Source: Vicinamibacteria bacterium (GTDB lineage Bacteria > Acidobacteriota > Vicinamibacteria > Fen-336). From it: a stretch of DNA of 64,000 nucleotides. The position numbers and the translations under genes were made by a program. The stretch lies in contig DATMML010000037.1 in NCBI GenBank assembly GCA_035570235.1, positions 152,426-216,425 on the forward strand. The letters are read 5' to 3'. Below the pieces are notes generated by a model, which saw nothing but the letters and a program-made list of their open reading frames with translations, ran no database searches and had not been told where the DNA came from. Positions within the stretch are counted from its first letter, which is position 1; every line of letters begins with the position of its first letter. Shown here one piece after another: positions 23,939-60,322 of the stretch.

Positions 23939-26506
23939 CTAGCCGGCTCTGAACGTCTGCTTGAGCGTGACCCTCGCCTTGACCTTGATCCCTTTCTTCA
24001 TCGCGGGCGCGTATTTCCAGCTGCGGATGGCGGCCAGGACCGCTTCGTCCACCGCCCGGTTGCCCCCCGACTCTAGCACCCTGGGCTCCGTCACCTCTCC
24101 ATTTTCCGTCACCACGAAGGAAACGGAAACCGACACGGAGTCGCCCGACTTCATCTTGGGCGCGCTCTCCGGGTAGGAGACGGACAGTCCGGAGAGCTTC
24201 TTGGCCAGGGTGTCCACGTCGCTGGCCGCGTTCGCGTAGATATGGGCGGTGTCCACGACGTCGGCCGCGGGCGGGGGCGGGGCCTTGACGAGGGCCTTGA
24301 GCTGGGCATCGAGCTTGCCCCTCTTCCCCGCCTGGACGGTGAGCGTCCCCGCCCACGGCTCATATCCATCCTTGGTCATCTCGACCCGGCGGCTCCCCAC
24401 CCGGAGCTTGAGGTCGGTCTGGGGAGTGGGCCCAACCCGGGCCCCGTCGATCGAGACCAAGGCCCCGTAGGGAGTCGACAGGATGTCCGCCACACTGGTG
24501 GCAGGGGCGGAGCGGGTCAAGGGGATGACCGCCTCCGCCGCGGGCAGCTCCGGGCTCAGGACCACGGTCTGGGTCTTGGGCTCGTAGCCCTTCAACTCGA
24601 CCTTGACCTCGTAGCTTCCCAGGGGAAGATCCCGGAGATCGAGGGGGGTCTCGCCGCGCGCCTGGCCATTCACGGTGACCGCCGCCGCTCCGGGCTGGCT
24701 CACCACGCGGATCATGCCCTTCTTCTCCTCGATGGCGGGGGGCATGGGCTCCGGGGTCGGAAGGGTCTTGCGGGTCACGGCCACGCTGGGGGTGGGGACG
24801 GGCGGCGCGGGCTCGGTCCGGCCCGCGCTCCTGAAGAGCACGATGCCGACGAGGCCGAGGGCCAGCAGGAAGAGCAGGGCCGCTCCCCCCAGGATCAAGC
24901 CGACGGGAATGCGGGAACGCACCGCGGGGGGGCCAGCCACGGGGGGCGCCTCGGGCAGGGGGGGCGCCGTCGGCCGGGGCAAGGGTGGAGCGGCCGTCCT
25001 CCCCAAAGACCGGGTCTCTTCGAGGACGGGGTGCTTCTGGGTGGGGCCGCCCTTGTCCGCGGGCCCGCGCGACTTTGCCGTGGGCCCGGGGGCGGCCATT
25101 ACTACCGTGGCCCCCTCTTCGGCGGGCACGGAAGCATCCATGAGGATCGTCGACTCCGACGCCTCGGATCCCAGGGGGGGCGGGGGGGACGGCCGGGCCG
25201 CGGGCTTCTTGGGCAGGGCGCCTGCCTTCATGAGGACGGTGGCCGGCGCGTCGTCGGCGGGGGGAGCTTTTATGAGGACGGTGGCCGGCGAGTCGTCGGT
25301 CTCCGCCGGGGGAGGAGCGGGGGCCGAGGGTCTCTTCTTGGCCGGGGGCGGCGCGGTGGGCGCCTTCATGAGGACGGTGGCCGGGGCGTCGGATCCCGAG
25401 GGCTGGGCCTTTATGAGCACGGTCGCGGGAGAATCGTCCTCGGCCATCGGTAGGGGTGCGAGGGGTCGTTCGACCGGCTTCGCCTTGGGCGGCGCGGGGG
25501 CGCGGGTGGCCGCCGGCTCCTCCCGGGGGTGGGCCGGAGGCGGCGCCGGGGGCTGGATCTCGGGGAGAGGGATGTGGGCGAGCGTCGTGGTGGTCTCGAC
25601 GGTGGCGCTCGCGGTCACGATCGTCTGGTCCGCCCCCAGCCCGCCGAACCAGGAGCCGAGGCAATACTCCAAGTCCTGGACGAACGCGCCCGCGGTCTGG
25701 TAGCGGTCGTCGGGCTTCTTGGCCAGGGCCTTGCCGAACACCTCGTGCCATTTCTGGGGCACGAGGCCGTGCATCTCGAGGTTCGCGGGCTCGATGGGGT
25801 CGACATGCACCAGCTTGTAGAGGATCGAGGTCACGTTGTTCCCCGGGAACGGCTGCTCTCCGGAGAGCATCTCGAAGCAGCACACGCCCAGAGAGAAGAT
25901 GTCGCTCCGCCCGTCGAGCTTGTCGCCCATGGCCTGCTCGGGCGACATGTAGGAGGGCGTGCCGAGGAGGGTGCCCGACTGCGTCATCTCCGCATCCACC
26001 AGCTTCGCGATCCCAAAGTCGGTCACTTTCACCCGATCCTCGTCGAACAGGATCAGGTTCGAGGGCTTGATGTCGCGGTGGATCACGCCTTTGCTGTGGG
26101 CGTAGTCGACGGCGGAGGCGATCTGGCTGGCCAGGCCGATCACCTTCTCCGGCTTGAAGCGCACGCCCTTCTCGATGAGGGAGGCGAGGGTTTGGCCCTC
26201 CACGAACTCCATGGCCAGATAGGGCACCCCCCCCTCCTCGCCAATGTCGAAGAGGGTCACGATGTTCGGATGGGAGAGCGTCCCCGAGATTCGGGCCTCG
26301 TGGTAGAACCGCTCGATGAAGGACTTGTACTGCGGGCTCTGGCGCGGGATGTCCAGCCGGATGGTCTTGATGGCGAGGGTGCGCTTGATCAGGGGGTCGA
26401 AGGCCTTGTAGACGGCCCCCATGGCCCCGAAGCCGATGCTCTCCTGGACCTTGTAGCGGCCGATGCTCTGGGGCATCTGCTCGGTTGATCGGCTGTTGTC
26501 GTCCAT
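23939..26506 (-). CDS. serine/threonine protein kinase with peptide repeats, TM segment, two PEGA domains and TonB-C-like C-terminus
   Basis: Hanks kinase subdomains (GAMGAVYKA, HRDIKPSN, DFG, SPE); four (D/A)PATVL(I/M)KA repeats; PEGA-like β domains; C-terminal TonB-C-like fold. Confidence 0.85.
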   Translation of the reverse strand: MDDNSRSTEQMPQSIGRYKVQESIGFGAMGAVYKAFDPLIKRTLAIKTIRLDIPRQSPQYKSFIERFYHEARISGTLSHPNIVTLFDIGEEGGVPYLAMEFVEGQTLASLIEKGVRFKPEKVIGLASQIASAVDYAHSKGVIHRDIKPSNLILFDEDRVKVTDFGIAKLVDAEMTQSGTLLGTPSYMSPEQAMGDKLDGRSDIFSLGVCCFEMLSGEQPFPGNNVTSILYKLVHVDPIEPANLEMHGLVPQKWHEVFGKALAKKPDDRYQTAGAFVQDLEYCLGSWFGGLGADQTIVTASATVETTTTLAHIPLPEIQPPAPPPAHPREEPAATRAPAPPKAKPVERPLAPLPMAEDDSPATVLIKAQPSGSDAPATVLMKAPTAPPPAKKRPSAPAPPPAETDDSPATVLIKAPPADDAPATVLMKAGALPKKPAARPSPPPPLGSEASESTILMDASVPAEEGATVVMAAPGPTAKSRGPADKGGPTQKHPVLEETRSLGRTAAPPLPRPTAPPLPEAPPVAGPPAVRSRIPVGLILGGAALLFLLALGLVGIVLFRSAGRTEPAPPVPTPSVAVTRKTLPTPEPMPPAIEEKKGMIRVVSQPGAAAVTVNGQARGETPLDLRDLPLGSYEVKVELKGYEPKTQTVVLSPELPAAEAVIPLTRSAPATSVADILSTPYGALVSIDGARVGPTPQTDLKLRVGSRRVEMTKDGYEPWAGTLTVQAGKRGKLDAQLKALVKAPPPPAADVVDTAHIYANAASDVDTLAKKLSGLSVSYPESAPKMKSGDSVSVSVSFVVTENGEVTEPRVLESGGNRAVDEAVLAAIRSWKYAPAMKKGIKVKARVTLKQTFRAG
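25215..25445. repeat. four tandem copies of an approx. 22-nt unit (TTCATGAGGACGGTGGCCGGCG-like) inside the kinase CDS, encoding the PATVL(I/M)KA peptide repeats
   Basis: Direct inspection of the plus-strand sequence; copies at about 25223, 25268, 25363 and 25408. Confidence 0.5.
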
Positions 26507-26743
26507 ATCCCCCGAGCCCTGCCTACCCCTCTAATACGTTCTGCGAACGCGGAAAGAGCGTGGCAAAAGCGAGGCGAAGCACCGCACCCCTGGGCGTTCG
26601 GACTTTAGCACCAAGGTGAAAAGGTGTCAACGCGAGAGGCGCTCAAGTCACGGAGAGGGAAGGGGTTGCGGTGTCGGGTTCGGGAACAACCGAGCGTCCG
26701 CGGCCGTATGGACTGCCGGAGGCTCACCTATAATGGAGGCGCA

Positions 26744-50887: not shown

Positions 50888-52801
50888 TCCCTCGTCCTCC
50901 TGGCCAGCGGCCTCCTGGCCGCTTGCGCGGGGGCGCCCGCGGCCCCCCAAGCGCCCGCCGCGGACGGGGGCGACGGCCAGCGCCTGGTCGCTCTCCTCGA
51001 CTACATCAGCGGCGACTACCGGCGCGCGGTCCGCGGCCGGCAGGTCCTGGTGGTGAGCGAGTACGAGGAGCAGATCCGGTTCGCGGGCGAGGCCCGCGGA
51101 CTGGCTCGCGGCCTCCTGGGCCCCTCCTCCTCCCCGGACGATCCCCTCCTGACCGGGCTCGCCGAGGTGGAGGCCCAGGTCCGGGCGAAGGCGGAGCCGG
51201 AAGCAGTGGCGGAGGTCTGCCGGTCGGCGCGCGAGCAGGCGGTGGCGCGCTTCAGCCTCCGCACCATGCCCGTCGAGCGGCCCTCCCTCCCCCGCGCCCA
51301 GCGCCTCTACGCCGAGTCCTGCACCCCCTGCCACGGCGCGCAGGGGAACGCCGACACCGAGCGGGCCCGTTCCTTCAACCCTCCCCCCGCGCGCTTCCGC
51401 GACCCCTCCCGCCTGGGCGAGATGTCTCCCTACCGGATCTACAACGCGCTCACCTTCGGCGTCCCCGGCACGGCCATGGCCTCCTTCGACAGCCTGTCCC
51501 CCGCCGACCGCTGGAGCCTGGCCTTCTACGTCTTCCGGCTGGGGCACGAGGGCGAGAGGGCGGGAGCCCCCGTGGCCATGACCCTGGCCGACATGGCCGG
51601 CCGCTCCGACCTCGAGATCGCCGCCGGCCTTAAGGCCGAGAAGCACCCCGACCCCGACGGTGCGCTCGTCTACCTGCGGCGCGAGGCGGCCTTCACGGAG
51701 GCGCCGGCGGGGGTCGGGATCGACCGCACGCGGGAGATGGCCCGGCAGGCGGTGCGCCTGTACACCCAGGGGCGGGCGCGCGAGGCGGACCGCCTGGCCC
51801 TCGACGCCTACCTGCAGGGCTTCGAGCCGCTGGAGATGCGCCTGCGGGCCCGGGACGCCGCGGGCACGCTCCAGGTGGAGACCGGCTTCCGCGACCTTAG
51901 GGCCTCGATGGTTCAGGGGGAGACCGCCGATCGTGTGCGGGCCCGGGGCCAGGCCCTGGATGGCCGGCTGGCCTGGCTGGGGGAGGGAGGGCGGCGGCCC
52001 CTCGTCCCCCTGGCCGCGGGCTTCCTGATCTACTTCCGGGAGGGCGTCGAGGCCGCGCTCCTCGTGGGCGCTCTCCTGGCCGGCCTCAGGCGCCTCGGCC
52101 GCCCCGAGGCCGCGCGGTACCTCCACGCGGGCTGGCTTCTGGCCCTGCCCGCGGGCGTGGTCACCTGGTGGGTCTTCGACCGCGCCATCTCCCTGGGCTC
52201 GAGCCAGCGCGAGCTGATGGAGGCGCTCGTCGCCCTCCTGGCCGCGGCCGTGCTCTTCTCGGTGAGCTTCTGGATGATCTCCAAGGCGGAGTCCCGCCAC
52301 TGGATGGGCTACCTCAAGCAGAAGCTCGAGGCGGGGCTCTCCCGCCGCAGCCTCCTCGTCCTCTCCGGCCTGGCTTTCCTAGCCGTCTATCGGGAGGCCG
52401 CCGAGACCATCCTCTTCACTCAGGCCCTGCTCCTGGAGTCGGAGCTCCATCGGGCCGAGGTCTGGACGGGGGCGCTTCTGGGCCTCCTGGCGGTGGTGGT
52501 GGCGGCCGTCCTCATGAACCGCACCGTCCTGCGTCTGCCCCTCGGTCCCTTCTTCGCGGTCTCCAGCCTCCTCCTCTGCGGCCTCGCCATCTCCTTCGCG
52601 GGGACGGGCATCTACCAGCTGGTGGCGACGGGCTACCTGACCCCGCGCCCGGTGCCCTTCCCGGAGGTGCCCTGGATGGGCATCCATCCCGACCTGACCG
52701 GCCTGCTCGTTCAGCTCACGATCCTCCTCATCATCGCGGGGGCGGGGCTCCTCACCCTCCTGCGGCGGCCCCTGGCCCAGTCCGGCGGTCACGCCGCCTG
52801 A
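50861..52801 (+). CDS. cytochrome c / FTR1-family iron permease fusion (lipoprotein signal)
   Basis: MKLKF...LLAACAG lipobox; CTPCHG heme-binding CxxCH; two RExxE motifs (FREGVEA, YREAAET) in a 7-TM FTR1 permease domain. Confidence 0.8.
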   Translation: MKLKFNFIMSLVLLASGLLAACAGAPAAPQAPAADGGDGQRLVALLDYISGDYRRAVRGRQVLVVSEYEEQIRFAGEARGLARGLLGPSSSPDDPLLTGLAEVEAQVRAKAEPEAVAEVCRSAREQAVARFSLRTMPVERPSLPRAQRLYAESCTPCHGAQGNADTERARSFNPPPARFRDPSRLGEMSPYRIYNALTFGVPGTAMASFDSLSPADRWSLAFYVFRLGHEGERAGAPVAMTLADMAGRSDLEIAAGLKAEKHPDPDGALVYLRREAAFTEAPAGVGIDRTREMARQAVRLYTQGRAREADRLALDAYLQGFEPLEMRLRARDAAGTLQVETGFRDLRASMVQGETADRVRARGQALDGRLAWLGEGGRRPLVPLAAGFLIYFREGVEAALLVGALLAGLRRLGRPEAARYLHAGWLLALPAGVVTWWVFDRAISLGSSQRELMEALVALLAAAVLFSVSFWMISKAESRHWMGYLKQKLEAGLSRRSLLVLSGLAFLAVYREAAETILFTQALLLESELHRAEVWTGALLGLLAVVVAAVLMNRTVLRLPLGPFFAVSSLLLCGLAISFAGTGIYQLVATGYLTPRPVPFPEVPWMGIHPDLTGLLVQLTILLIIAGAGLLTLLRRPLAQSGGHAA

Positions 52802-52809
52802 AGCCGACG

Positions 52810-53067
52810 GTGTCCCCGCCCACCCTCACCCTGCTCGGCAGACCGGACTGCCGTCTCTGCCATGAGATGCGGGCGGTGGCGGAGCGGGTGCTCCTCGAGC
52901 CCGCCCGGGTCGTAGAGCGGGACGTCCGCGAGGACCCCGAGCTCGAGAAGCTCTACCGGCTGGAGATTCCGGTGCTGCTTTGGGGAGAGCGGGAGGTCGT
53001 CCGGCACCGCGTGACGGAGGCCGAGCTCCGCGGGCGGCTGCAGGAGCTCGGCTTCGGCCGCCCCTGA
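52810..53067 (+). CDS. glutaredoxin-like small protein (DUF836/YruB-like)
   Basis: LLGRPDCRLCHEM CxxC motif in an 85-aa thioredoxin fold; GTG start 9 nt after the upstream stop. Confidence 0.55.
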   Translation: MSPPTLTLLGRPDCRLCHEMRAVAERVLLEPARVVERDVREDPELEKLYRLEIPVLLWGEREVVRHRVTEAELRGRLQELGFGRP

Positions 53068-53070
53068 GGG

Positions 53071-53110
53071 AAAAAAGACGGCGTGCCCCAGGGGGGCACG
53101 CCGTCTTTGC
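53071..53110. terminator. bidirectional rho-independent terminator (GACGGCGTGCCCC-AGG-GGGGCACGCCGTC flanked by A6 / T3)
   Basis: 13-bp perfect GC-rich stem, 3-nt loop, A-run upstream and T-run downstream; sits between convergent genes. Confidence 0.6.
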
Positions 53111-53130
53111 CATCGCTGGCTTTTTGGTCG

Positions 53131-54642
53131 CTACTCGTCGGTGCGGAAGGTGAACACCACCCGCTCGCCGGCTCGGCCGCTCAGGCGGAAGACGACCGCC
53201 TCGCCCGAGATCTCGGCCACGCTTCCGGCCAGGACGCGCAGGCTGCCGGGAACCAGGTTGGCGGTGGCTCCGAGCTCGAAGCGCCACGTCCCGGGCTTTC
53301 CCGCCCCCTGGACGAGCTGGGCCTCGACCCGGTTCTCGCCCCGGCGGCCCGCGGCCAGCGCCGTGGACCCGCCCGGGCCCGCGAACGCCGCGGTCTCGCC
53401 GTTGACCATCACCTGACCGCTCGCTCCCTCGACGTCGAGCTGGCTCGCCCAACCGATCCGGCGGGCGAGGGCGGTCGTGGGTTGGGCGGTCGGGGAAACC
53501 GATGCCAGGCAGGGGGTGTCCTTCGAGACGCCGCTTGCGGCCACGGGGAAGAAGCAGGGCTGGAACGGCATGCGGACCTGGAAGTCCTCGTGGGCGTTGG
53601 GGGCGTTGCCGGGGGTGTTCTGCGTCTCCACCCTCATGCGCACGTCATAGACGAAGGTGATGGTGAAGACGGGCACGAGGTTTCCGCTCGCTCCGATGTT
53701 TCCGTTCGCATGCTGGCCGCCGAAGGGTGTCGTGATCCCGGTGACGGGGGTGAAGGTGATGGGAACGTCGCACTTGCCTCCCAGAGTCGTCGGAAAATTG
53801 GGCGGGGGCGGGATGGGACCGGGAAAGTTCGTCTCCACGTGCAGGTTCACGTCCACGTTGTAGGCGAGCTTGCCTGGTCCCGTGCTCTGGCACATGTCGA
53901 ACTCGACTTGCTGGGCCTGGAAGGGATTGAAGAAGGGCAGGTTGATGGGTGAGCCCTGCTCGACGCCGCCCAAGCGGACATGGAAGGAGGCGTTGAAGGG
54001 CACGGCGGGCAGGGTGGTCGTGGTGGTCGTGGGCAGCGCGGCGGGCGCGGTGGTCGGCGGCGAACCCGCGGTCTGCGTCGGCGAGGGCGAATTGCTGCTG
54101 CGGGTGGCCAGGGCGACGCCGCCCCCCACCACCGCCGCTCCCCCCACCGCCGCCAGCACCGTCGCCGTCCCGATTCCCGCCGCCGCAAACCCCGCGGGCA
54201 CGGCCGGAAACACCGCCCCCGGGGCGCTCGAGGCAAAGGGAGCCACGGGGGTGTCCTTCTGGCACTCGCTCTCGCTCTTCACTACCAGCGCCTCGTTGTC
54301 CACCGTCCGGTTCTCCAGGAACTTCTGGTCGAACGCGTCCACGTAGTACTGAATCTTCTTCCCGATAAGCTCCTTCCTGGGCTTGGGAAGAACCCCCGCG
54401 TGGCAGGGCGCATCCGCCTTCATCTCCACGTAGTACCAGTTCGGCGGTCCCTCCTCCGCCCGGAAGTAGACCCTCGCCCGGGCCACCTGGCCCGCGGGCG
54501 AAAAGCAGGCGTTCATCTTCGGATACTTTTCGGCCACGATGCACCCGATGGCTTTGTGATCGATCGTCAAGCCCTGCGCCCGCAGTGACCCCGGCAACAG
54601 CATCAAGAGCAGCGCGACTCCATTAACGGTGGCTCGCTTCAT
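53131..54642 (-). CDS. secreted paralog 1 of an uncharacterised triplicated family (Cys-containing N-domain, Gly/Ala hydrophobic segment, Thr/Pro linker, two further domains)
   Basis: Signal peptide LLPGSLRAQG; 60-75% identity by eye to the two downstream paralogs across all domains. Confidence 0.6.
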   Translation of the reverse strand: MKRATVNGVALLLMLLPGSLRAQGLTIDHKAIGCIVAEKYPKMNACFSPAGQVARARVYFRAEEGPPNWYYVEMKADAPCHAGVLPKPRKELIGKKIQYYVDAFDQKFLENRTVDNEALVVKSESECQKDTPVAPFASSAPGAVFPAVPAGFAAAGIGTATVLAAVGGAAVVGGGVALATRSSNSPSPTQTAGSPPTTAPAALPTTTTTTLPAVPFNASFHVRLGGVEQGSPINLPFFNPFQAQQVEFDMCQSTGPGKLAYNVDVNLHVETNFPGPIPPPPNFPTTLGGKCDVPITFTPVTGITTPFGGQHANGNIGASGNLVPVFTITFVYDVRMRVETQNTPGNAPNAHEDFQVRMPFQPCFFPVAASGVSKDTPCLASVSPTAQPTTALARRIGWASQLDVEGASGQVMVNGETAAFAGPGGSTALAAGRRGENRVEAQLVQGAGKPGTWRFELGATANLVPGSLRVLAGSVAEISGEAVVFRLSGRAGERVVFTFRTDE

Positions 54643-54763
54643 CGTTTAGCCTCCCCAGGCATCTCGCCGCGACCGGCCAGAGTACGGCGTGGCCGGACCG
54701 GCACGAGGGACTGTGTCTTATACGGGTGTTATAGCACAAAGGCAGGGTGGTCCCTAGGAAATA

Positions 54764-54802
54764 GGAGCGAGCGGCATGCCCCGCAGGGCACGCCGCTCGC
54801 TC
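54764..54802 (-). terminator. GC-rich hairpin (16-bp stem, 1 mismatch) downstream of paralog 2
   Basis: GGAGCGAGCGGCATGCC-CCGCAG-GGCACGCCGCTCGCTC; weak T-tract on the minus strand. Confidence 0.35.
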
Positions 54803-54817
54803 GCGGACCAGTTCTGA

Positions 54818-56248
54818 CTAGTTTGCGGTACGGAAGCTGAATACCACGCGCTCGCCCGGCCGGCCGCTCAGCCGGAAGACGACCGACTCACCCGACAGCA
54901 GGGCCACGTCGCCGGCGAGAACGCGCACGCTTCCCGGCATGACACCGGTCGTCGGCAAGTCGAAGCGCCAGGTGCCCGGCTTCCCCGCCCCCTGCACGAG
55001 CTGGGCTTCGACGCGGTTTTCTCCCACCCGGCCCGTGGCGAGAGAAGTCGACCGGCCGGGGCCCGCGAAGACCGCGGCCGCGCCGTTGATCACCACTTGG
55101 CCCGTGGCTTCCGGCACGTCTAGCTGGCTGGCCCAGACAATACGCCCCGCGGTTGAAGACTGCAGGCCCGAGTTGGACTCGAAGCCGAAGCCGCGGTCCA
55201 TCAGAATATGGACGTCCTGGTGCGCCTTCGGGCTGTTGCCGGGAGTGCCCGCCGTCTCCACCCTCATACGGACATCATAGCTGCCGATGAGGAAGAAGCC
55301 GAGGGAGCCGGAAGGTCTGAGAGCTGAGACTCCGAAGCCCCGGAAGGGTGATGAGATCCCCCGGTCAGTGAAGGTCATTGGAATGTTGCAGAGTCCTCCA
55401 AGCGTGACCGGGAAACCAGGGGGGCCAGGGAACCCCGGGACAGGGGTCTCGCCGACATCTACGTTGAAGGTGAGCGTGCCCGGCCCCGTGCTCTGGCACA
55501 TATCGAACTCGACCTGGGGAGGAACAAAGGGGTTCAGATCCAGGGACGTGCTCGTCTGCACCACCCCGCCCACCTTGACGATGAAGACGGCATTGAAGGG
55601 CACCTGGGGCTGGGTCGTGGTGGTTGTGGTCGGTATGGTCGCCGGTACCGTCGTGGGCGTCGTGACTAAGGGCTGCGTCGTTGGCGGCGGGTTGTTGTTG
55701 CTGCGGGTGGCGAGGGCGACTCCGCCCCCCACCACCGCCGCTCCCCCCACCGCCGCCACCACCGTCGCCGTCCCCACCCCCGCCGCCGCAAACCCCGCCG
55801 GCACGGCCGGGAAGACCGCGGCCGGCGCGCTCGTCGCGAAGGGCGCGACGGGCACGTCCTTCTTGCACTCGGACTCGCTTTTCACCACCAGCGCCTCGTT
55901 GTCCACGGTGCGGTTCTCCGCGAACTTCTGGTCGAAGGCGTTCACGTAGTAGAGGACCTTCTTCCCGATCAGCTGCTTCTTGGGCTTGGGAAGAACCCCT
56001 GCGTGGCAGGGGGCCTCCGACTTCATCTCCACGTAGTACCAGTTCGGCGGCCCGTCCTCCTGCCGGAAGTAGACGCGCGCCCGGGCCAGCTGGCTGGCGG
56101 GAGAAAAGCACGCGTTCAACTTGGGATACTTCTCGGCCACGATGCATCCCACCGGCTTGTGGTCGATGTTCAGCCCTTGGGCCAGAAGAGGGACCGGCAG
56201 CACCAGCAATAGCGACGCGACTCCGCGACGGACGGCTCGCTCCAACAT
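54818..56248 (-). CDS. secreted paralog 2 of the triplicated family
   Basis: ATG start 7 nt after a GGGAGG RBS; same domain order as paralog 1, including the C-terminal β-rich domain. Confidence 0.6.
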   Translation of the reverse strand: MLERAVRRGVASLLLVLPVPLLAQGLNIDHKPVGCIVAEKYPKLNACFSPASQLARARVYFRQEDGPPNWYYVEMKSEAPCHAGVLPKPKKQLIGKKVLYYVNAFDQKFAENRTVDNEALVVKSESECKKDVPVAPFATSAPAAVFPAVPAGFAAAGVGTATVVAAVGGAAVVGGGVALATRSNNNPPPTTQPLVTTPTTVPATIPTTTTTTQPQVPFNAVFIVKVGGVVQTSTSLDLNPFVPPQVEFDMCQSTGPGTLTFNVDVGETPVPGFPGPPGFPVTLGGLCNIPMTFTDRGISSPFRGFGVSALRPSGSLGFFLIGSYDVRMRVETAGTPGNSPKAHQDVHILMDRGFGFESNSGLQSSTAGRIVWASQLDVPEATGQVVINGAAAVFAGPGRSTSLATGRVGENRVEAQLVQGAGKPGTWRFDLPTTGVMPGSVRVLAGDVALLSGESVVFRLSGRPGERVVFSFRTAN

Positions 56249-56422
56249 GAATAGCCTCCCCAGGCTTTGCGCCGCGACCGGACACAAGAAAGCCTTGGCC
56301 GGACCGGCAGGAGGAATCTGTTCCCTAGTGTGCACGCCCCCGATACCACGAATGCGTTGTCGTTCCCGACAAAGAAGCGGGAGCGAACGGACCGGATTCA
56401 AGGGCACGCCGCAGGCCGACAT

Positions 56423-57475
56423 CTAACAGCAGTTCGTATTGAAGAGAATGTGGAAGTCCTGGTGGGCTTTCGGGCTGTTGCCCACCGTACCGGCCGTCTC
56501 CACCCGCATGCGGATGTCATAGCTGCCAATGACGAAGGGAGGCGGGGGAAAGGGCGGCGGGCCGGGGGGGGATGTGAACCCCCGGTCCGTGAAGGCGACG
56601 GGAATGCTGCAGGTCCCTCCCAGCGTGACCGGGAAGCCAGAAACGGGCGGGGAGAACTGAGCCGGGTTGGCCCCGATGTCGAGGTTGAAGGCGAGCTTGC
56701 CCGGGCCCGTGCTCTGGCACATGTTGAACTCGACGATGGGGGGGGTAGAGCAGGCGCACGTGTTCAGCGTGGGGCTCGTCTGAGGTGCCCCGTTCACCCG
56801 GACGATGAAGACGGCGTTGAAGGGTACGGGGGGGGTCGTGGCCGGGGTGGTGGTGGGCGTGGTGATCGGGGTCGTGACGGGCACGGTGGCGGGAATACCC
56901 TGAGTGGTAGGAGTCGGGTTGTTGTTCCCGCTCGACGCGAGCGCCACCCCGCCCCCCACCACCGCCGCTCCCCCCACCACCGCCGCCACCGTCGCCGTCC
57001 CCACTCCCGCCGCCGCAAACCCGGCCGGCATGGCGGGGAAGACGGCGGCGGGGGCGCCCGCCGCGAAGGGCGCGACGGGCAGGTCTTTCCGGCACTCGCC
57101 CTCGCTCTTCACGACCAAGGCCTCGTTGTCCACGGTGCGGTTCTCCGCGAACTTCTGGTCGAACGCGTTCACGTAGTAGAGGACCTTCTTCCCGATCAGC
57201 TGCTTCTTGGGCTTGGGAAGAACCCCTGCGTGGCAGGGGGCCTCCGACTTCATCTCCACGTAGTACCAGTTCGGCGGCCCGTCCGCCTGCCGGAAATAGA
57301 CGCGGGCCCGTGCCAGCTGGCTGGCGGGCGAAAAGCACGCGTTCAACTTGGGATACTTCTCGGCCACGATGCATCCCACCGGTTTGTGGTCGATGTTCAG
57401 CCCTTGGGCGAGAAGAGGGACGGGAAGCACCACCCACAGCAATGCGACTCCGCGACGCACGGCCCGCTCAAACAT
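56423..57475 (-). CDS. secreted paralog 3 of the triplicated family, C-terminally truncated (possible pseudogene or variant)
   Basis: Identical N-terminal half to paralog 2; ends ...HILFNTNCC, lacking the last approx. 125 aa present in paralogs 1 and 2. Confidence 0.5.
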   Translation of the reverse strand: MFERAVRRGVALLWVVLPVPLLAQGLNIDHKPVGCIVAEKYPKLNACFSPASQLARARVYFRQADGPPNWYYVEMKSEAPCHAGVLPKPKKQLIGKKVLYYVNAFDQKFAENRTVDNEALVVKSEGECRKDLPVAPFAAGAPAAVFPAMPAGFAAAGVGTATVAAVVGGAAVVGGGVALASSGNNNPTPTTQGIPATVPVTTPITTPTTTPATTPPVPFNAVFIVRVNGAPQTSPTLNTCACSTPPIVEFNMCQSTGPGKLAFNLDIGANPAQFSPPVSGFPVTLGGTCSIPVAFTDRGFTSPPGPPPFPPPPFVIGSYDIRMRVETAGTVGNSPKAHQDFHILFNTNCC

Positions 57476-57730
57476 GAATAGCCTCCCGAGGCTTTGCGTG
57501 CCGGACACAGGAAGCAGGTGGCCGGACCGGTAGGAGGGATTTCCCGGCGATATTAGCACGAAGGTCAAGCCTCGGTGGCGTGCCCGGCGGGGAAAGGGCG
57601 TCGTTTTCTGTTCTCTCCTTGTCCACTGCGAAGAGAATTTTGGGGCCGGAACCCTATCCGCGGCTCGGGAGGGCGGAGGGTGCGGGCGTGGGGGCGCGGA
57701 GCGGCTCCGGGAGAGCAACCCCCGCGTGAG

Positions 57731-60322
57731 CTAGCGCTCTTTCGCGCTCTCCTCTGCCTCCAGGCGGCGGGCCCAGGGGGTGTCGGAAAACTCCTCCCGC
57801 AAACGCTTTCGATCGGCGTCCGCGCCTTCGGCGTCACCGGCCGCCTCCCGCGCCGCCGCTCCTCCGAACAGGGCCTGGGCCACGTAGGGGCTGGTGGGGG
57901 CCTCGAGCACCAGAGCGGAGAAGGCCTCCGCCGCTTCCCGCGGGTGACCGACTCGGGCCAGGCTCTCCCCGCGCAAGCAGAGCATCTCCGCGCGCAGAGG
58001 CGACCCCCCGGGCGCGAAACTGGCGCCGTGCCGGGCGTACTCCGCAGCCTCTTCGAAATGCTCGGCGGCGTACGCTCTCGACGCGCGTTCGTAGAGGGTC
58101 GTCGGATCCCCCGCCGGATGACGGGGCCCGCTCGCAAACCGGCTGGCCACCAGGAGGAGCAAGAGGCCGCCGGGGACGAGACCGCCCCAGCGGCGGCCGG
58201 GCGAGGGCAGGGCGCACGCCTCCACCGGGTTTGGCCCCGGAGTGGGGCTTGACTCGGAGACCCGCCGCCGGCGCCGCAAGGCCGCGGCCACGACTCCGAG
58301 GGCGATCCCGGAGAGTCCGAGGCCCAGCCAGTCGGCGGCGTTGCGCGAGGGGTAAATGAGCCGCACCGTGCTCTGCCGGGGTATCACCATCATGAGAGCG
58401 GGCGAGATCAGGTAAGGGCCGTCCGCTCCCTCCGCCCGCCAGCGCGGGTGGTAGGAGATCTTCACCAGCAGGGGGTGGCCCGGATGGTCGGTGGTGATGG
58501 TGAGGCCTTCCGCCTCCACCCTCTCCTCCACCTTCACGTCCCCGGGGAGGGGCAGGAGGGGCGGGGCCAGCCACTCATCCTTCTCCACGACCCCGATGCG
58601 GGGGTCATCGGTGAAGACGAGGGGGGCAGGGCTGAGCGGCTTGCGCGTGAACCAGCGGTAGGCCTTGTCCCGCCAATGGGCGGGTGGGGAACGCACGGGC
58701 GCGAAGGGGAGCGGCTCCACGTAGGAGGAGCCGGAGGAGGCCAGATGGAAGATCCGGTAGGGGGGGATGCTGGCCACGCTCATCACGTCGGCCCGGGCGT
58801 CCAGGGCGGAGATGAGCTGGGGCGAGAGGGCCACGACCTCGTTGACGTTGAAGAGCCGCAGGCGGGGAAAGGCGTTCTCGGGATCAAAGTGCGAGTACTC
58901 ACGGCTTCGGAAGGGGTTGGGAGAGCTCGCGAAGAGCTCGGAGGCCAGGTAATAGACGGCGTGGGTCTGGAGGCTGGCCTGGTTGTAGACCCCCTCGAGG
59001 GTGGAGCGGCCGGTGAAGAAGGGCAGGGTCTCGTACATCCGGATGGATCCCGCTTTTTCGTGGGTGGCGCTGTATTCGACGGCCACCCGCGGATCGGCGA
59101 CCGTGCCCTGGAGGCGGTCGGAGAGCTCGCGGAAGGCGGGCCACAGCTCCTTGGCCTCGAGGCCGGTGTAGTTCCAGTCGATCCAGGAGCGCAGTACCTT
59201 CGATTGCCCGTCTACGTGGCAGACGGCGACGAGCACCAGGCCCAGGGCGGCCAGGTCCGGGGCGGACAGGAGGCGGAGGCCGAGGCCGAGGCTGACGCCC
59301 CCCGCCAGGCAAAGCGCGAGGTGGGTGAAGGGGACGAAGCGGACGTCGATGATGCCGAGGGCCGGCCCCGCCGCGGCCAAGGCCGCCCCCACCGCCGCCG
59401 CGTGGATGAGGAACAGCAGCCGGTGGTCGGGCCCCCCGGTACGACGGGCCCAGAGGAGCGTAGACAGGAGGCCGGCTGAGGCGACCACGAAGAGGGGCCA
59501 GAGCAGAAACGGGAAGAGCCCATGGGTGGTGACCGTGATCCAGGGGTCATCGTAGGGCGTGGTCCAGCGCCAATAGAAAAGGAGGGGCACGAGGGTGACG
59601 CCGGCAAGGGCGAAGGCCAGCCCGGCCAGGGCCAGGAGCCAGCGCAGCGTCCGCGCCGGGCGGCGGGCCGCGTAAAGGAAATAGGAAGCGGAGAGGCCGG
59701 CCCAGAGCACGGCGTACCCGTGGGCGAGGGCGGTGAGGGCAAGGAGGAGGGCCGGGACCCAGGGTCCACGGCCATCGGCAAAGCACCGATACGTGCATCC
59801 CAGGAAGAGGACGGCGAGACCGATGCCATACGTATAAGCGAACTCTCCGGTCAGGGTGCTGGCCAGGCTGCCCCCCCAGATCGCGTTCTCCTCCAGGAAG
59901 AGGAACACGAGGGCCCCCGCCGCTCCCAGAAGGGGGGCGGGAAAACCGAAACCCAGGAGCCGGAGCGCGGCGTAGGTCAGCAGAGGCAAGAGGAACACCC
60001 CGAGCACGGTGCCGAGCTTGAAGGCCACGGGCATGCCCGTCAGGGGGGCCAGGCCCGAGATGATGAGGAAGGGAAGGGGAAAGTAGTAGAGAAGGAGCGG
60101 CTGCCCAAGATAGGCCCCGGGATACCAGCCGTGGAGGCGCAGGCTCGGCAGGAGGCGCTCGTGGAACCAGACCGCGGTGGGATAGTGGCAGGGCGTATCA
60201 CCCCCCGCGGCGATGGTGGGCAGGAAGAGCAGCGAGGGTCGGAGGTAGTCCAGGAGCACCAGGAGCAGAACGAGGAGGCCGAGGGCGTCCGCGGTCCGCT
60301 CCCGCCAGCGGGGCAATGACAT
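57731..60322 (-). CDS. large polytopic membrane protein with extracytoplasmic domain and C-terminal TPR-like region (glycosyltransferase-39/ArnT-like or YfhO-like topology)
   Basis: About 12 TM helices at the N-terminus, a 300-aa soluble domain, another TM, then a TPR-like helical tail; family assignment uncertain. Confidence 0.55.
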   Translation of the reverse strand: MSLPRWRERTADALGLLVLLLVLLDYLRPSLLFLPTIAAGGDTPCHYPTAVWFHERLLPSLRLHGWYPGAYLGQPLLLYYFPLPFLIISGLAPLTGMPVAFKLGTVLGVFLLPLLTYAALRLLGFGFPAPLLGAAGALVFLFLEENAIWGGSLASTLTGEFAYTYGIGLAVLFLGCTYRCFADGRGPWVPALLLALTALAHGYAVLWAGLSASYFLYAARRPARTLRWLLALAGLAFALAGVTLVPLLFYWRWTTPYDDPWITVTTHGLFPFLLWPLFVVASAGLLSTLLWARRTGGPDHRLLFLIHAAAVGAALAAAGPALGIIDVRFVPFTHLALCLAGGVSLGLGLRLLSAPDLAALGLVLVAVCHVDGQSKVLRSWIDWNYTGLEAKELWPAFRELSDRLQGTVADPRVAVEYSATHEKAGSIRMYETLPFFTGRSTLEGVYNQASLQTHAVYYLASELFASSPNPFRSREYSHFDPENAFPRLRLFNVNEVVALSPQLISALDARADVMSVASIPPYRIFHLASSGSSYVEPLPFAPVRSPPAHWRDKAYRWFTRKPLSPAPLVFTDDPRIGVVEKDEWLAPPLLPLPGDVKVEERVEAEGLTITTDHPGHPLLVKISYHPRWRAEGADGPYLISPALMMVIPRQSTVRLIYPSRNAADWLGLGLSGIALGVVAAALRRRRRVSESSPTPGPNPVEACALPSPGRRWGGLVPGGLLLLLVASRFASGPRHPAGDPTTLYERASRAYAAEHFEEAAEYARHGASFAPGGSPLRAEMLCLRGESLARVGHPREAAEAFSALVLEAPTSPYVAQALFGGAAAREAAGDAEGADADRKRLREEFSDTPWARRLEAEESAKER

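Follow-up and report, generated by a model that had tools for sequence, protein, structure and literature searches.

Stem-loops that stabilise mRNAs from within the 5' UTR, such as that of E. coli ompA, and 5'-terminal pairing that hinders RNase E are covered in a review (PMC3997798) whose reference list includes Arnold, Yu & Belasco 1998 and Bouvet & Belasco 1992. Other hairpins occlude the Shine-Dalgarno sequence (SD), as in the ROSE and fourU thermometers and in translational operators. A third kind of precedent, concerted evolution by gene conversion, keeps the promoter, leader and 5' coding sequence similar among neighbouring gene copies while their 3' parts diverge.

Vicinamibacteria are an abundant class of soil Acidobacteriota made up mostly of uncultured lineages, and to our knowledge almost nothing is known about their gene regulation. 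The window, meaning the whole 64 kb stretch of Vicinamibacteria DNA that was analysed, contains three minus-strand paralogs with start codons at 54642 (A), 56248 (B) and 57475 (C). The features of the locus are collected in Table 1. Paralog A has a signal peptide, an Ig-like N-terminal domain, an Ala/Gly-rich hydrophobic segment, a Thr/Pro-rich linker and C-terminal domains. Pfam gave no domain in any of the three paralog proteins, and matches to the AlphaFold model of the N-terminal domain were limited to generic Ig-like beta-sandwiches; the family is one of secreted Ig-like surface proteins that are probably glycosylated. The syntenic locus in relatives holds one to four gene copies.

Table 1. 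Positions of genes, predicted transcription signals and leader hairpins within the 64 kb window.
Feature	Position	Strand	Details
Paralog A CDS	53131..54642	-	503 aa; ORF listing; identical to P0002
Paralog B CDS	54818..56248	-	476 aa; ORF listing; 100% identical to P0001
Paralog C CDS	56423..57475	-	350 aa, short form; orthologues 349-350 aa
Bidirectional intrinsic terminator after paralog A	53062..53108	.	fold z -5.0; common to convergent Glrx-like gene
Intrinsic terminator after paralog B	54765..54802	-	17-bp stem, then U-rich tail; fold z -6.6
Extended -10 promoter box, A	54728..54736	-	TGCTATAAC; predicted from sequence
Decayed -10 box, B	56340..56348	-	TGGTATCGG; homologous to TGCTATAAG in relatives
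Extended -10 promoter box, C	57550..57558	-	TGCTAATAT; predicted from sequence
Predicted 5' UTR of A	54643..54721	-	~79 nt; putative start 7 nt downstream of -10 hexamer
Hairpin P1, A	54665..54703	-	UGCCGGUCCGGCCA-loop-UGGCCGGUCGCGGCG; -22.2 kcal/mol, z -2.15
Hairpin P1, B	56270..56309	-	-19.7 kcal/mol, z -2.79; loop contains AGGCUUU
Degenerate P1, C	57497..57532	-	-10.0 kcal/mol, z -0.57
SD hairpin, A	54647..54661	-	UGCCU-GGGG-AGGCU(A); overlaps GGGAGG
SD hairpin, B	56252..56266	-	AGCCU-GGGG-AGGCU
SD hairpin, C	57479..57493	-	AGCCU-CGGG-AGGCU

A homologous non-coding leader of ~70-80 nt lies ahead of each of the three paralogs. An earlier note on this DNA had placed such leaders at 54643-54720, 56249-56330 and 57476-57560. 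Alignment of the three upstream regions, which extended from about -75 to the start codon and thus well beyond the SD and ATG, bore this out together with a covariance model, and the coordinates were correct within a few bases. On the minus strand of the window the leader covariance model found exactly three sites (89.4 bits at 56246-56318, 76.8 bits at 54641-54712 and 55.4 bits at 57473-57541), the next-best score in the 64 kb being 12.8 bits. The blocks common to the three leaders were TCCCTCC, TGCCGGTCCGGCC, CCGGTCGCGGC and AGCCTGGGGAGGCTA; allowing up to two mismatches, the last occurred three times in the window versus 0.27 expected by chance. The leaders were judged to be non-coding because copy A has an in-frame TAA at -6 to -4, the indels between copies are of 1, 2 and 4 nt, and GGGAGG sits 8 nt ahead of each ATG. 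A leader peptide or N-terminal extension was excluded by the same TAA and by the indels, which are not multiples of three.

Upstream of the leaders of A and C, an extended -10 feature (TGn followed by a TAnnnT hexamer, suitably placed relative to the gene) was present, and the relatives have boxes of this kind reading TGCTATAAG, TGCTAGAAT and TGCTACACT. The A and C boxes are predicted to be sigma-70-type extended -10 promoters. A sigma-70 consensus scan of 52800-58000 returned no full -35/-10 promoter, so the call is made from the extended -10 box only; TTGACC at 57563-57568 lies just 7 nt upstream of the C box, too close to be its -35 element. The same type of box is found in a canonical promoter at 26602-26640 (TTGACA-N17-TGCTAAAGT), ~95 nt upstream of another long ORF. 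On by-eye inspection, the spacings of the conserved boxes were unsuitable for sigma-54 or ECF-type promoters. The predicted promoter of A has the terminator after paralog B directly upstream of it. Paralog B has no upstream terminator and its box does not match the extended -10 pattern, and for these two reasons it is probably read through from C. The leader was nevertheless kept in B, and also in a related locus (L120a), despite a decayed -10 box.

Homology among the paralogs began in the remnant of the previous gene's terminator, covered the -10 box and the leader, and reached into the coding sequence. As judged from this arrangement, the locus is a tandem duplication of one unit consisting of terminator, putative extended -10 promoter, 5' UTR and gene. 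Orthologues in ~10 related Vicinamibacteria populations have this leader too, but it was missing in more distant family members, syntenic ones included. Covariance model R1, searched against the window and 126 related loci (about 650 kb), matched only sites ending at the ATG of close-clade family genes: full-length matches scored 55-90 bits, two matches at contig ends scored 32-35 bits, and all else scored 16 bits or less. A dispersed repeat (REP or MITE-like) was excluded, since R1 matched only directly upstream of family genes.

The similarity of the paralog leaders is by itself no evidence of selection. Among paralogs, identity is higher in the neighbouring N-terminal coding DNA than in the leader (80-98% versus 70-78%), the leaders of close orthologues diverge about as four-fold sites do (0.71 versus 0.65-0.70; 0.87 versus 0.81-0.84), and leader types have been swapped. 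Paralog B of the window carries a C-type leader, and in L001/L114/L115 the leader of the middle gene is A-type and matches that of its neighbour at 95% identity, with identity of only 0.64 at four-fold sites of the coding sequences. These cases are clear evidence that leader types were exchanged among paralogs by gene conversion. All of this, together with the 4-nt hairpin deletion tolerated in copy C, is what neutral hitch-hiking would predict, in which recent duplication and gene conversion explain the likeness and only the ribosome-binding site and -10 box are functional. We consider this unlikely in view of how the conservation is distributed. Among nine subclade representatives, block identity was 0.86 and 0.96 in the two arms of a leader hairpin but 0.49 in its loop (14-19 nt), 0.31 in the 5' segment and 0.45 in the linker; the leaders compared are related, and these statistics are thus not independent. 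In deep comparisons, leader identity was 0.68-0.78 versus 0.49-0.61 at four-fold sites, and the arms stayed intact across genomes in which four-fold sites approach saturation (0.52-0.59). Gene conversion within a genome offers no explanation for conservation between genomes, and the hairpin is both stabler than shuffled sequence and strand-asymmetric, as described below.

The arms of this hairpin, P1, are UGCCGGUCCGG and CCGGUCGCGGC, which pair over 12-16 bp as a GC-rich imperfect helix. In isolation the hairpin had a stability of -18 to -30 kcal/mol and a mean z of -2.2 against dinucleotide shuffles, and the same hairpin was folded by 17 of the 19 sequences. Folding of whole leaders showed no extra stability compared to shuffled sequence (z -0.36, +0.35 and +0.84). 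For 18 of the 19, the sense strand folded more stably than the antisense (mean -3.5 kcal/mol; Wilcoxon p = 0.0003, for sequences that are not independent). G·U pairs account for the greater stability on the mRNA strand: substitutions in the stem were mostly C-to-U opposite G, and the divergent members L032, L109 and L033 have 3-5 G·U pairs in the hairpin, L109 retaining a 9-bp helix in a shifted register. In copy C, a 4-nt deletion takes part of the 3' arm, with GGCACG replacing GGUCGCGGCG, and the gene shows no obvious loss. Across the leader, the stems were nearly invariant, and a single pair had a double change, probably from one event. As to the covariation-supported structure that the earlier note had set as a check, there is a stable and conserved hairpin, but the covariation is thin. 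P1 is followed by (G)CAAAGCC, and an intrinsic terminator or attenuator was excluded because the hairpin has no U run after it; the terminator scan listed only the small SD hairpins and the true terminator at 54765-54802.

Conservation of the arms as sequence and not merely as pairing, with almost no compensatory changes, is also what would be expected of a DNA operator, in which a transcription factor would bind the palindrome GCCGGTCCGGC together with the related box CCGGTCGCGGC downstream of it, and so either block or activate transcription just past the start site. The 5' arm is an 11-bp palindrome, and the two boxes additionally form a direct repeat. Such an operator seems quite unlikely, because the spacing of the boxes varies by up to 5 nt (14-19 nt of loop and distal stem) and helical phasing is therefore not preserved, and because the divergent members pair through G·U, a mismatch in DNA, with poorer folding of the antisense strand in all but one sequence. 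The element was also retained where the promoter box has decayed, and no DNA-binding regulator was conserved beside the locus, the neighbouring response regulator being a 120-aa receiver domain only.

Between P1 and the start codon, a second, small hairpin of 4-5 bp half-covers the SD, burying its 3' half. In it, one pair changed from AU to GC in a compensatory manner, and there were five wobble changes. The earlier note had instead proposed an AGGCTTT/AAAGCCT stem just 5' of the SD. This is a 7-bp match in B, where the duplex reaches -9.3 kcal/mol, but not in C (-4.1 kcal/mol) or A (-4.6 kcal/mol), and it is absent from A-type relatives; as a stem common to all three paralogs it was rejected, being strong in copy B alone among the three. 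It could still take part in a translational switch, with the hairpin and a covered SD as the OFF state. In the ON state the AGGCUUU of the P1 loop would pair with AAAGCCU, the strand otherwise covering the SD, and so free the SD in response to a protein, small RNA or ligand. The duplex is indeed stronger in L121 (-10.8 kcal/mol) and L034 (-13.9 kcal/mol) than in B, it ranks in the best 0.6-3.6% of shuffled loops, and a double change in L034 (U-to-G with A-to-C) preserves the pairing. Such a switch is nonetheless a long shot: A and C, every A-type leader, L001c and the L002/L032/L109 group have the duplex only in weak form or not at all, the competing hairpin is ~10 kcal/mol more stable, and no unpaired nucleotides are conserved in the manner of a ligand pocket.

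Masking of the ribosome-binding site by long-range pairing of the 5' UCCCUCC with GGGGAGG, closing the whole leader, is highly improbable. Copy A does adopt this pairing in its minimum-energy fold, most close-clade leaders contain UCCCUC (identity 0.61-0.69), and CCCUCC near GGAGGG is found in leaders of several distant clades as well. However, it showed no covariation, the 82% of cells that were paired were no better than shuffled columns, and L002, L032 and L109 have UUUCCUG or UUGGUGG in place of the motif. The SD was also predicted to be no less accessible than when the leader upstream of it was shuffled (median percentile 0.36 for the clade and 0.57 for the 88 other family leaders).

The best explanation overall, to which we give a probability of about 55%, is a duplicated promoter and 5' UTR module with hairpins selected at the RNA level and acting in cis. 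The unit of terminator, extended -10 sigma-70-type promoter, ~70-80 nt 5' UTR and gene would have been tandemly duplicated in one Vicinamibacteria lineage, and its upstream parts would later have been exchanged between copies via gene conversion. Within the 5' UTR, P1 and the SD hairpin would both be under purifying selection at the RNA level. P1, beginning ~17 nt after the predicted transcription start and so preceded by about that many unpaired nucleotides, may act in cis, either by hindering decay of the mRNA from its 5' end or by serving as a site for protein binding or processing, and the small AGCCU-GGGG-AGGCU hairpin may dampen translation initiation. The function judged most likely is an effect on mRNA stability or translation, exerted in cis by a stem-loop in the 5' UTR.

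To call the leaders a shared cis-regulatory region, in line with the RNA element or promoter suggested earlier, is fair in view of the homologous non-coding sequence, the promoter-like box, the conserved hairpin and their retention in other genomes; the similarity of the paralogs did not hold up as evidence of selection. Copies with an intact leader may be expressed alike, but uniform, co-ordinated regulation of the three genes, as had also been suggested, is unlikely, given the decayed -10 box of B with no terminator upstream and the hairpin of C weakened by deletion. We likewise think it quite unlikely that the leader is an undescribed class of cis-regulatory RNA serving as a co-ordinate translation switch of the tandem family, its hairpin being recognised by an RNA-binding protein or small RNA, or toggling against the loop or anti-SD pairing. 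The leader is probably a real but fairly ordinary regulatory feature, with a hairpin that tunes mRNA stability or translation.

What the locus adds for Vicinamibacteria is a predicted promoter type of defined sequence (extended -10 box TGCTAnnnT), along with a structured 5' UTR that is specific to one lineage and precedes genes of a large, uncharacterised family of exported Ig-like proteins. It also illustrates cleanly how a promoter and its leader can be duplicated and exchanged as one module between tandem paralogs. Should the hairpin bind a factor, post-transcriptional control in Vicinamibacteria could be approached through it; if it binds none, it would be an ordinary leader hairpin.

Comparison with Rfam 15, whose families include riboswitches, leaders, thermometers and the Acido-1 and Acido-Lenti-1 motifs, gave no match in region 54600-57600 at E ≤ 1 with permissive filters and no match at gathering score in 16 related loci. 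In the literature, no leader motif of such a kind was found described for Vicinamibacteria or Acidobacteria. A riboswitch was excluded, as the leader has one hairpin and the small SD hairpin only and no multi-helix aptamer, its stems being conserved and its loop and linkers 45-50% identical; riboswitch-type alternative pairing was present in a subset of leaders only. The small hairpin resembles the SD-occluding hairpins in that AGCCU-GGGG-AGGCU, just ahead of the start codon, pairs the 3' half of the SD and has one covarying base pair. It differs from ROSE and fourU in its stem of only 4-5 bp and in a predicted SD accessibility that is not unusual, and the paralogs are not heat-shock or virulence genes. 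An RNA thermometer of either type was excluded: the SD is paired to AGCCU, a strand that lacks any UUUU or ROSE motif, and there was no Rfam match.

Concerted evolution by gene conversion fits the 5' similarity and 3' divergence of the neighbouring copies and the swapping of leader types between copies in different genomes, but gene conversion alone leaves the block-wise conservation of the arms between genomes unexplained. With ompA, P1 has no sequence similarity, and an ompA-type hairpin lies at most a few nt (about 2-4) from the mRNA 5' end, compared to ~17 nt from the predicted start here. Like ompA, the leader has a stable, conserved hairpin on the sense strand of a long 5' UTR, ahead of an exported-protein gene with a strong ribosome-binding site; the two also share a conserved structure with a variable loop, the lack of a terminator tail and, as we infer for this leader, action in cis.

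The start methionines of the tandem paralogs A, B and C are the same in the public gene calls, and their upstream regions could be aligned from the start codon back to about -75. The blocks TCCCTCC, TGCCGGTCCGGCC, CCGGTCGCGGC and AGCCTGGGGAGGCTA are common to the three leaders, and a weaker conserved island, cCTTcGTGCTAtaA, lies farther upstream. At ≤2 mismatches, AGCCTGGGGAGGCTA occurred only at the three leader sites (chance expectation 0.27), where the leader covariance model scored 89, 77 and 55 bits; the runner-up in the 64 kb scored 12.8 bits. The alignment, motif count and model scores thus bore out an earlier note, which had placed a shared leader at these positions upstream of all three paralogs. 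Its length of ~70 nt also agrees with predicted 5' UTRs of ~79 nt for A and ~68 nt for C, with the transcription start placed 7 nt past the -10 hexamer. The leader does not code for protein: an in-frame TAA occupies -6..-4 in copy A, and indels of 1, 2 and 4 nt separate the copies. GGGAGG stands 8 nt ahead of the ATG in all three.

Coordinates of the paralogs, -10 boxes and terminators in the window.
Feature	Position	Strand	Detail
Paralog A	53131-54642	minus	ATG at 54642
Paralog B	54818-56248	minus	ATG at 56248
Paralog C	56423-57475	minus	ATG at 57475
Good extended -10 box of A	54728-54736		TGCTATAAC
Good extended -10 box of C	57550-57558		TGCTAATAT
Decayed -10 box of B	56340-56348		TGGTATCGG
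Strong terminator after B	54765-54802		fold z -6.6
Strong bidirectional intrinsic terminator after A, common to the convergent Glrx-like gene	about 53062-53108		fold z -5.0

No Pfam domain was found in proteins A, B and C, which belong to a large group of hypothetical exported proteins of Vicinamibacteria (Acidobacteriota; 457 matches in the search). Each consists of a signal peptide, a conserved ~125-aa N-terminal domain predicted to be an Ig-like beta-sandwich (model pLDDT 84.6), an Ala/Gly-rich hydrophobic segment, a Thr/Pro-rich linker (e.g. about 55600-55700) and variable C-terminal domains. Synteny is kept across many contigs, in the order RNase H-like gene, 120-aa receiver-only response regulator, 864-aa PTPS_related membrane protein and 1-4 family genes, followed by the convergent Glrx-like gene, FTR1-cytochrome c, pyrF and pyrD. 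Because the syntenic site holds from one copy (loci L110, L111) up to four (L115), the tandem array is lineage-specific. In every syntenic locus, the direct upstream neighbour of the array is the PTPS_related gene (PF10131; 57731-60322, minus strand, in the window), encoding a multi-pass protein with C-terminal TPR repeats; with the Thr/Pro-linker paralogs it may form a glycosyltransferase-substrate pairing.

Across a comparison set of 126 related genomic and metagenomic loci, covariance-model matches to the leader were confined to the close clade, with N-terminal identity to B of about 78% or more (L001, L002, L030-L034, L109-L121, L125, L126). Every match ended at a family-gene ATG and scored 55-90 bits, except two cut by contig ends (32-35 bits); no other match across the 126 loci exceeded 16 bits. 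A dispersed repeat and a regulon-wide motif were both rejected on these grounds, and the confinement to close-clade family-gene starts marks the element as of recent origin, specific to the lineage and linked to this gene. The leaders of the syntenic L122-L124 are unrelated to it, and other family clades have conserved leader types of their own. One clade (L003, L072-L074, L077, L080, L085-L088, L104) carries GGGAGCC, a variable GC-rich hairpin and then GGCGGCUCAGUGUAGG, ~30 nt ahead of the start codon; another (L078, L089, L090, L094, L096) carries GGUGUC...GCCCUCC...GGAGGC..GACACC. Each appears to be a structured leader in its own right, and Rfam gave no match for either. More distant clades (L054/L057/L059, L062, L068, L024, L006, L075, L045, L007) have an inverted repeat, GTGAC-N5-6-GTCAC/TCACG, like the CRP/FNR-type GTGA-N6-TCAC. 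Its position is given both as about 60-75 nt ahead of the -10 box region and as ~20 nt upstream of a TGCTACACT extended -10 box; the latter centres it near -41.5 and suggests activator-dependent (class II) promoters for these family members. This repeat is absent upstream of A, B and C.

Identity among A, B and C is lower in the leader (70-78%) than in the adjoining N-terminal coding DNA (80-98%). Between near orthologues, the leader and four-fold degenerate sites changed at about equal rates, with identities of 0.71 versus 0.65-0.70 for C and L001c, and 0.87 versus 0.81-0.84 for A and L001b (b and c denote gene copies within the locus). Window B has a leader (56249-56340) of the type found in C, 0.86 identical to L001c. 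The middle gene of L001, L114 and L115, orthologous to B, has a promoter and leader of the A type (3871-4000 in L001), 95% identical to those of the next gene, with coding four-fold sites only 0.64 identical. The paralogs have exchanged promoter-leader modules through gene conversion confined to the upstream region. Together, the lower leader identity, the four-fold-like rates and the swaps mean that duplication and gene conversion explain much of the similarity described in the earlier note. In deep comparisons, the leader held at 0.68-0.78 while four-fold sites dropped to 0.49-0.61. Block-wise identities among nine subclade representatives were 0.31 for the 5' segment, 0.69 for UCCCUCC, 0.86 for the 5' arm, 0.49 for the loop (14-19 nt), 0.96 for the 3' arm, 0.45 for the linker and 0.77 for the Shine-Dalgarno hairpin. 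This pattern of sequence conservation indicates selection on the two hairpin arms and the ribosome-binding region.

The arms, UGCCGGUCCGG and CCGGUCGCGGC, form an imperfect 12-16 bp hairpin with a bulged G and a U·U mismatch. This large hairpin was recovered by RNAalifold, and by RNAfold in 17 of 19 unique sequences (-18 to -30 kcal/mol); against dinucleotide shuffles its mean z was -2.2, with 13/19 in the best 4%. Stability of the whole leader showed no excess over shuffled sequence. The distal stem varies in sequence and keeps its pairing (CCA/UGG, CAAG/CUUG, CACA/UGUG, CAUAG/CUUGUG), L109 retains a 9-bp helix in shifted register, and by eye the L125 3'-arm variant (CCGG to CCCG) can pair with an extra G in its own 5' arm. 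Formal covariation is thin: core pairs are nearly invariant, one-sided changes are mostly C-to-U opposite G, and clear compensation is limited to the basal pair of the small AGCCU-GGGG-AGGCU hairpin over the Shine-Dalgarno, where AU becomes GC in four sequences from a single clade. In copy C, 4 nt are deleted from the 3' arm and the fold is weak (-10 kcal/mol, z -0.57); the orthologues of C have the 3' arm intact. The loop of the B hairpin (56270-56309, minus strand), AAGGCUUUCUUG, resembles the true ribosome-binding region GGAGGCUAUUCAUG, with AGG, a spacer and UUG in frame with the ORF, and the hairpin may have been born from an internal duplication of that site.

The stem proposed earlier for all three leaders, between the loop sequence AGGCUUU and AAAGCCU, is strong in B (-9.3 kcal/mol), in L121 and in L034, whose double change keeps the pairing. 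C (-4.1) and A (-4.6) form it weakly, A-type leaders and those typified by L002 lack it, and it competes with the much stronger large hairpin, so that it could not be upheld as a general feature. Long-range UCCCUCC / Shine-Dalgarno pairing was rejected, having no covariation, and predicted Shine-Dalgarno accessibility was no lower than with shuffled upstream leaders. An attenuator was ruled out, as the hairpin has no U tail. The leader matched no Rfam family.

The intergenic homology of A, B and C reaches past the leader to a -10-like box and a terminator remnant of the preceding gene (GCGGCGTGCCC...CGCTCGCTCC...TTTCCT). Relatives have TGCTATAAG, TGCTAGAAT, TGCTACACT or TGCTAAGAT at the place of the box. 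Elsewhere in the window, a textbook promoter sequence, TTGACA-N17-TGCTAAAGT (26602-26640, minus strand), with a perfect TTGACA and the same extended -10 type as in A and C, lies ~95 nt upstream of an 855-aa ORF (23939-26506); judged by sequence, it supports the extended -10 box as this organism's housekeeping promoter form, and suggests that long 5' UTRs and such boxes are common in this genome. No convincing terminator was found between C and B (fold z -1.1). Given this, the decayed box of B and the strong terminators after B and A, C and B are probably co-transcribed and A has its own promoter. The terminator stem after A (GACGGCGUGCCCC) resembles that after B (GCGGCGUGCCC), so the terminators are also part of the duplicated unit. 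First-in-array copies have a conserved TTGACC just 7 nt upstream of the -10 hexamer (57563-57568, minus strand, in the window; L034, L110, L111, L120, L121). The syntenic orthologues L122-L124 (about 72-74% identity) have a canonical TTGACC-N16-TGCTACCAT promoter, and the 7 versus 16 nt suggest a ~9-bp spacer deletion along the lineage that gained the hairpin leader.

The near-invariant arm sequences leave room for sequence-specific recognition. An RNA-binding protein would be the likelier partner, a DNA-binding protein using the arms as an operator the less likely one. Against an operator stand the variable spacing between the arms, the survival of the leader at copies with a decayed promoter box, and the G·U asymmetry of the strands. 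The sense fold was more stable than the antisense fold in 18/19 sequences (mean -3.5 kcal/mol) owing to the 3-5 G·U pairs of divergent members; this favours an RNA hairpin of the mRNA strand over a palindrome in the DNA.

The leader is a genuine 5' UTR element, not described before but familiar in kind, and restricted to one lineage. It was inherited via tandem duplication and gene conversion, with its hairpin arms under selection. It is not surprising, though of interest to specialists in Acidobacteria gene expression or RNA motif discovery. In the best-supported reading, an extended -10 promoter would drive each unit, giving an mRNA whose 5' UTR runs from an A/C-rich single-stranded start through the conserved GC-rich hairpin and a short linker to the small hairpin that half-covers a strong Shine-Dalgarno. 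Of the two hairpins, the small one would tune the initiation of translation; the large one most probably influences how long the mRNA persists, or is a site for protein binding or processing. A part in processing would matter if C and B share a transcript. The proposed effect on lifetime is drawn by analogy with ompA-like 5' UTR stem-loops, which hinder 5'-end-dependent decay (reviewed in PMC3997798, citing the ompA work).
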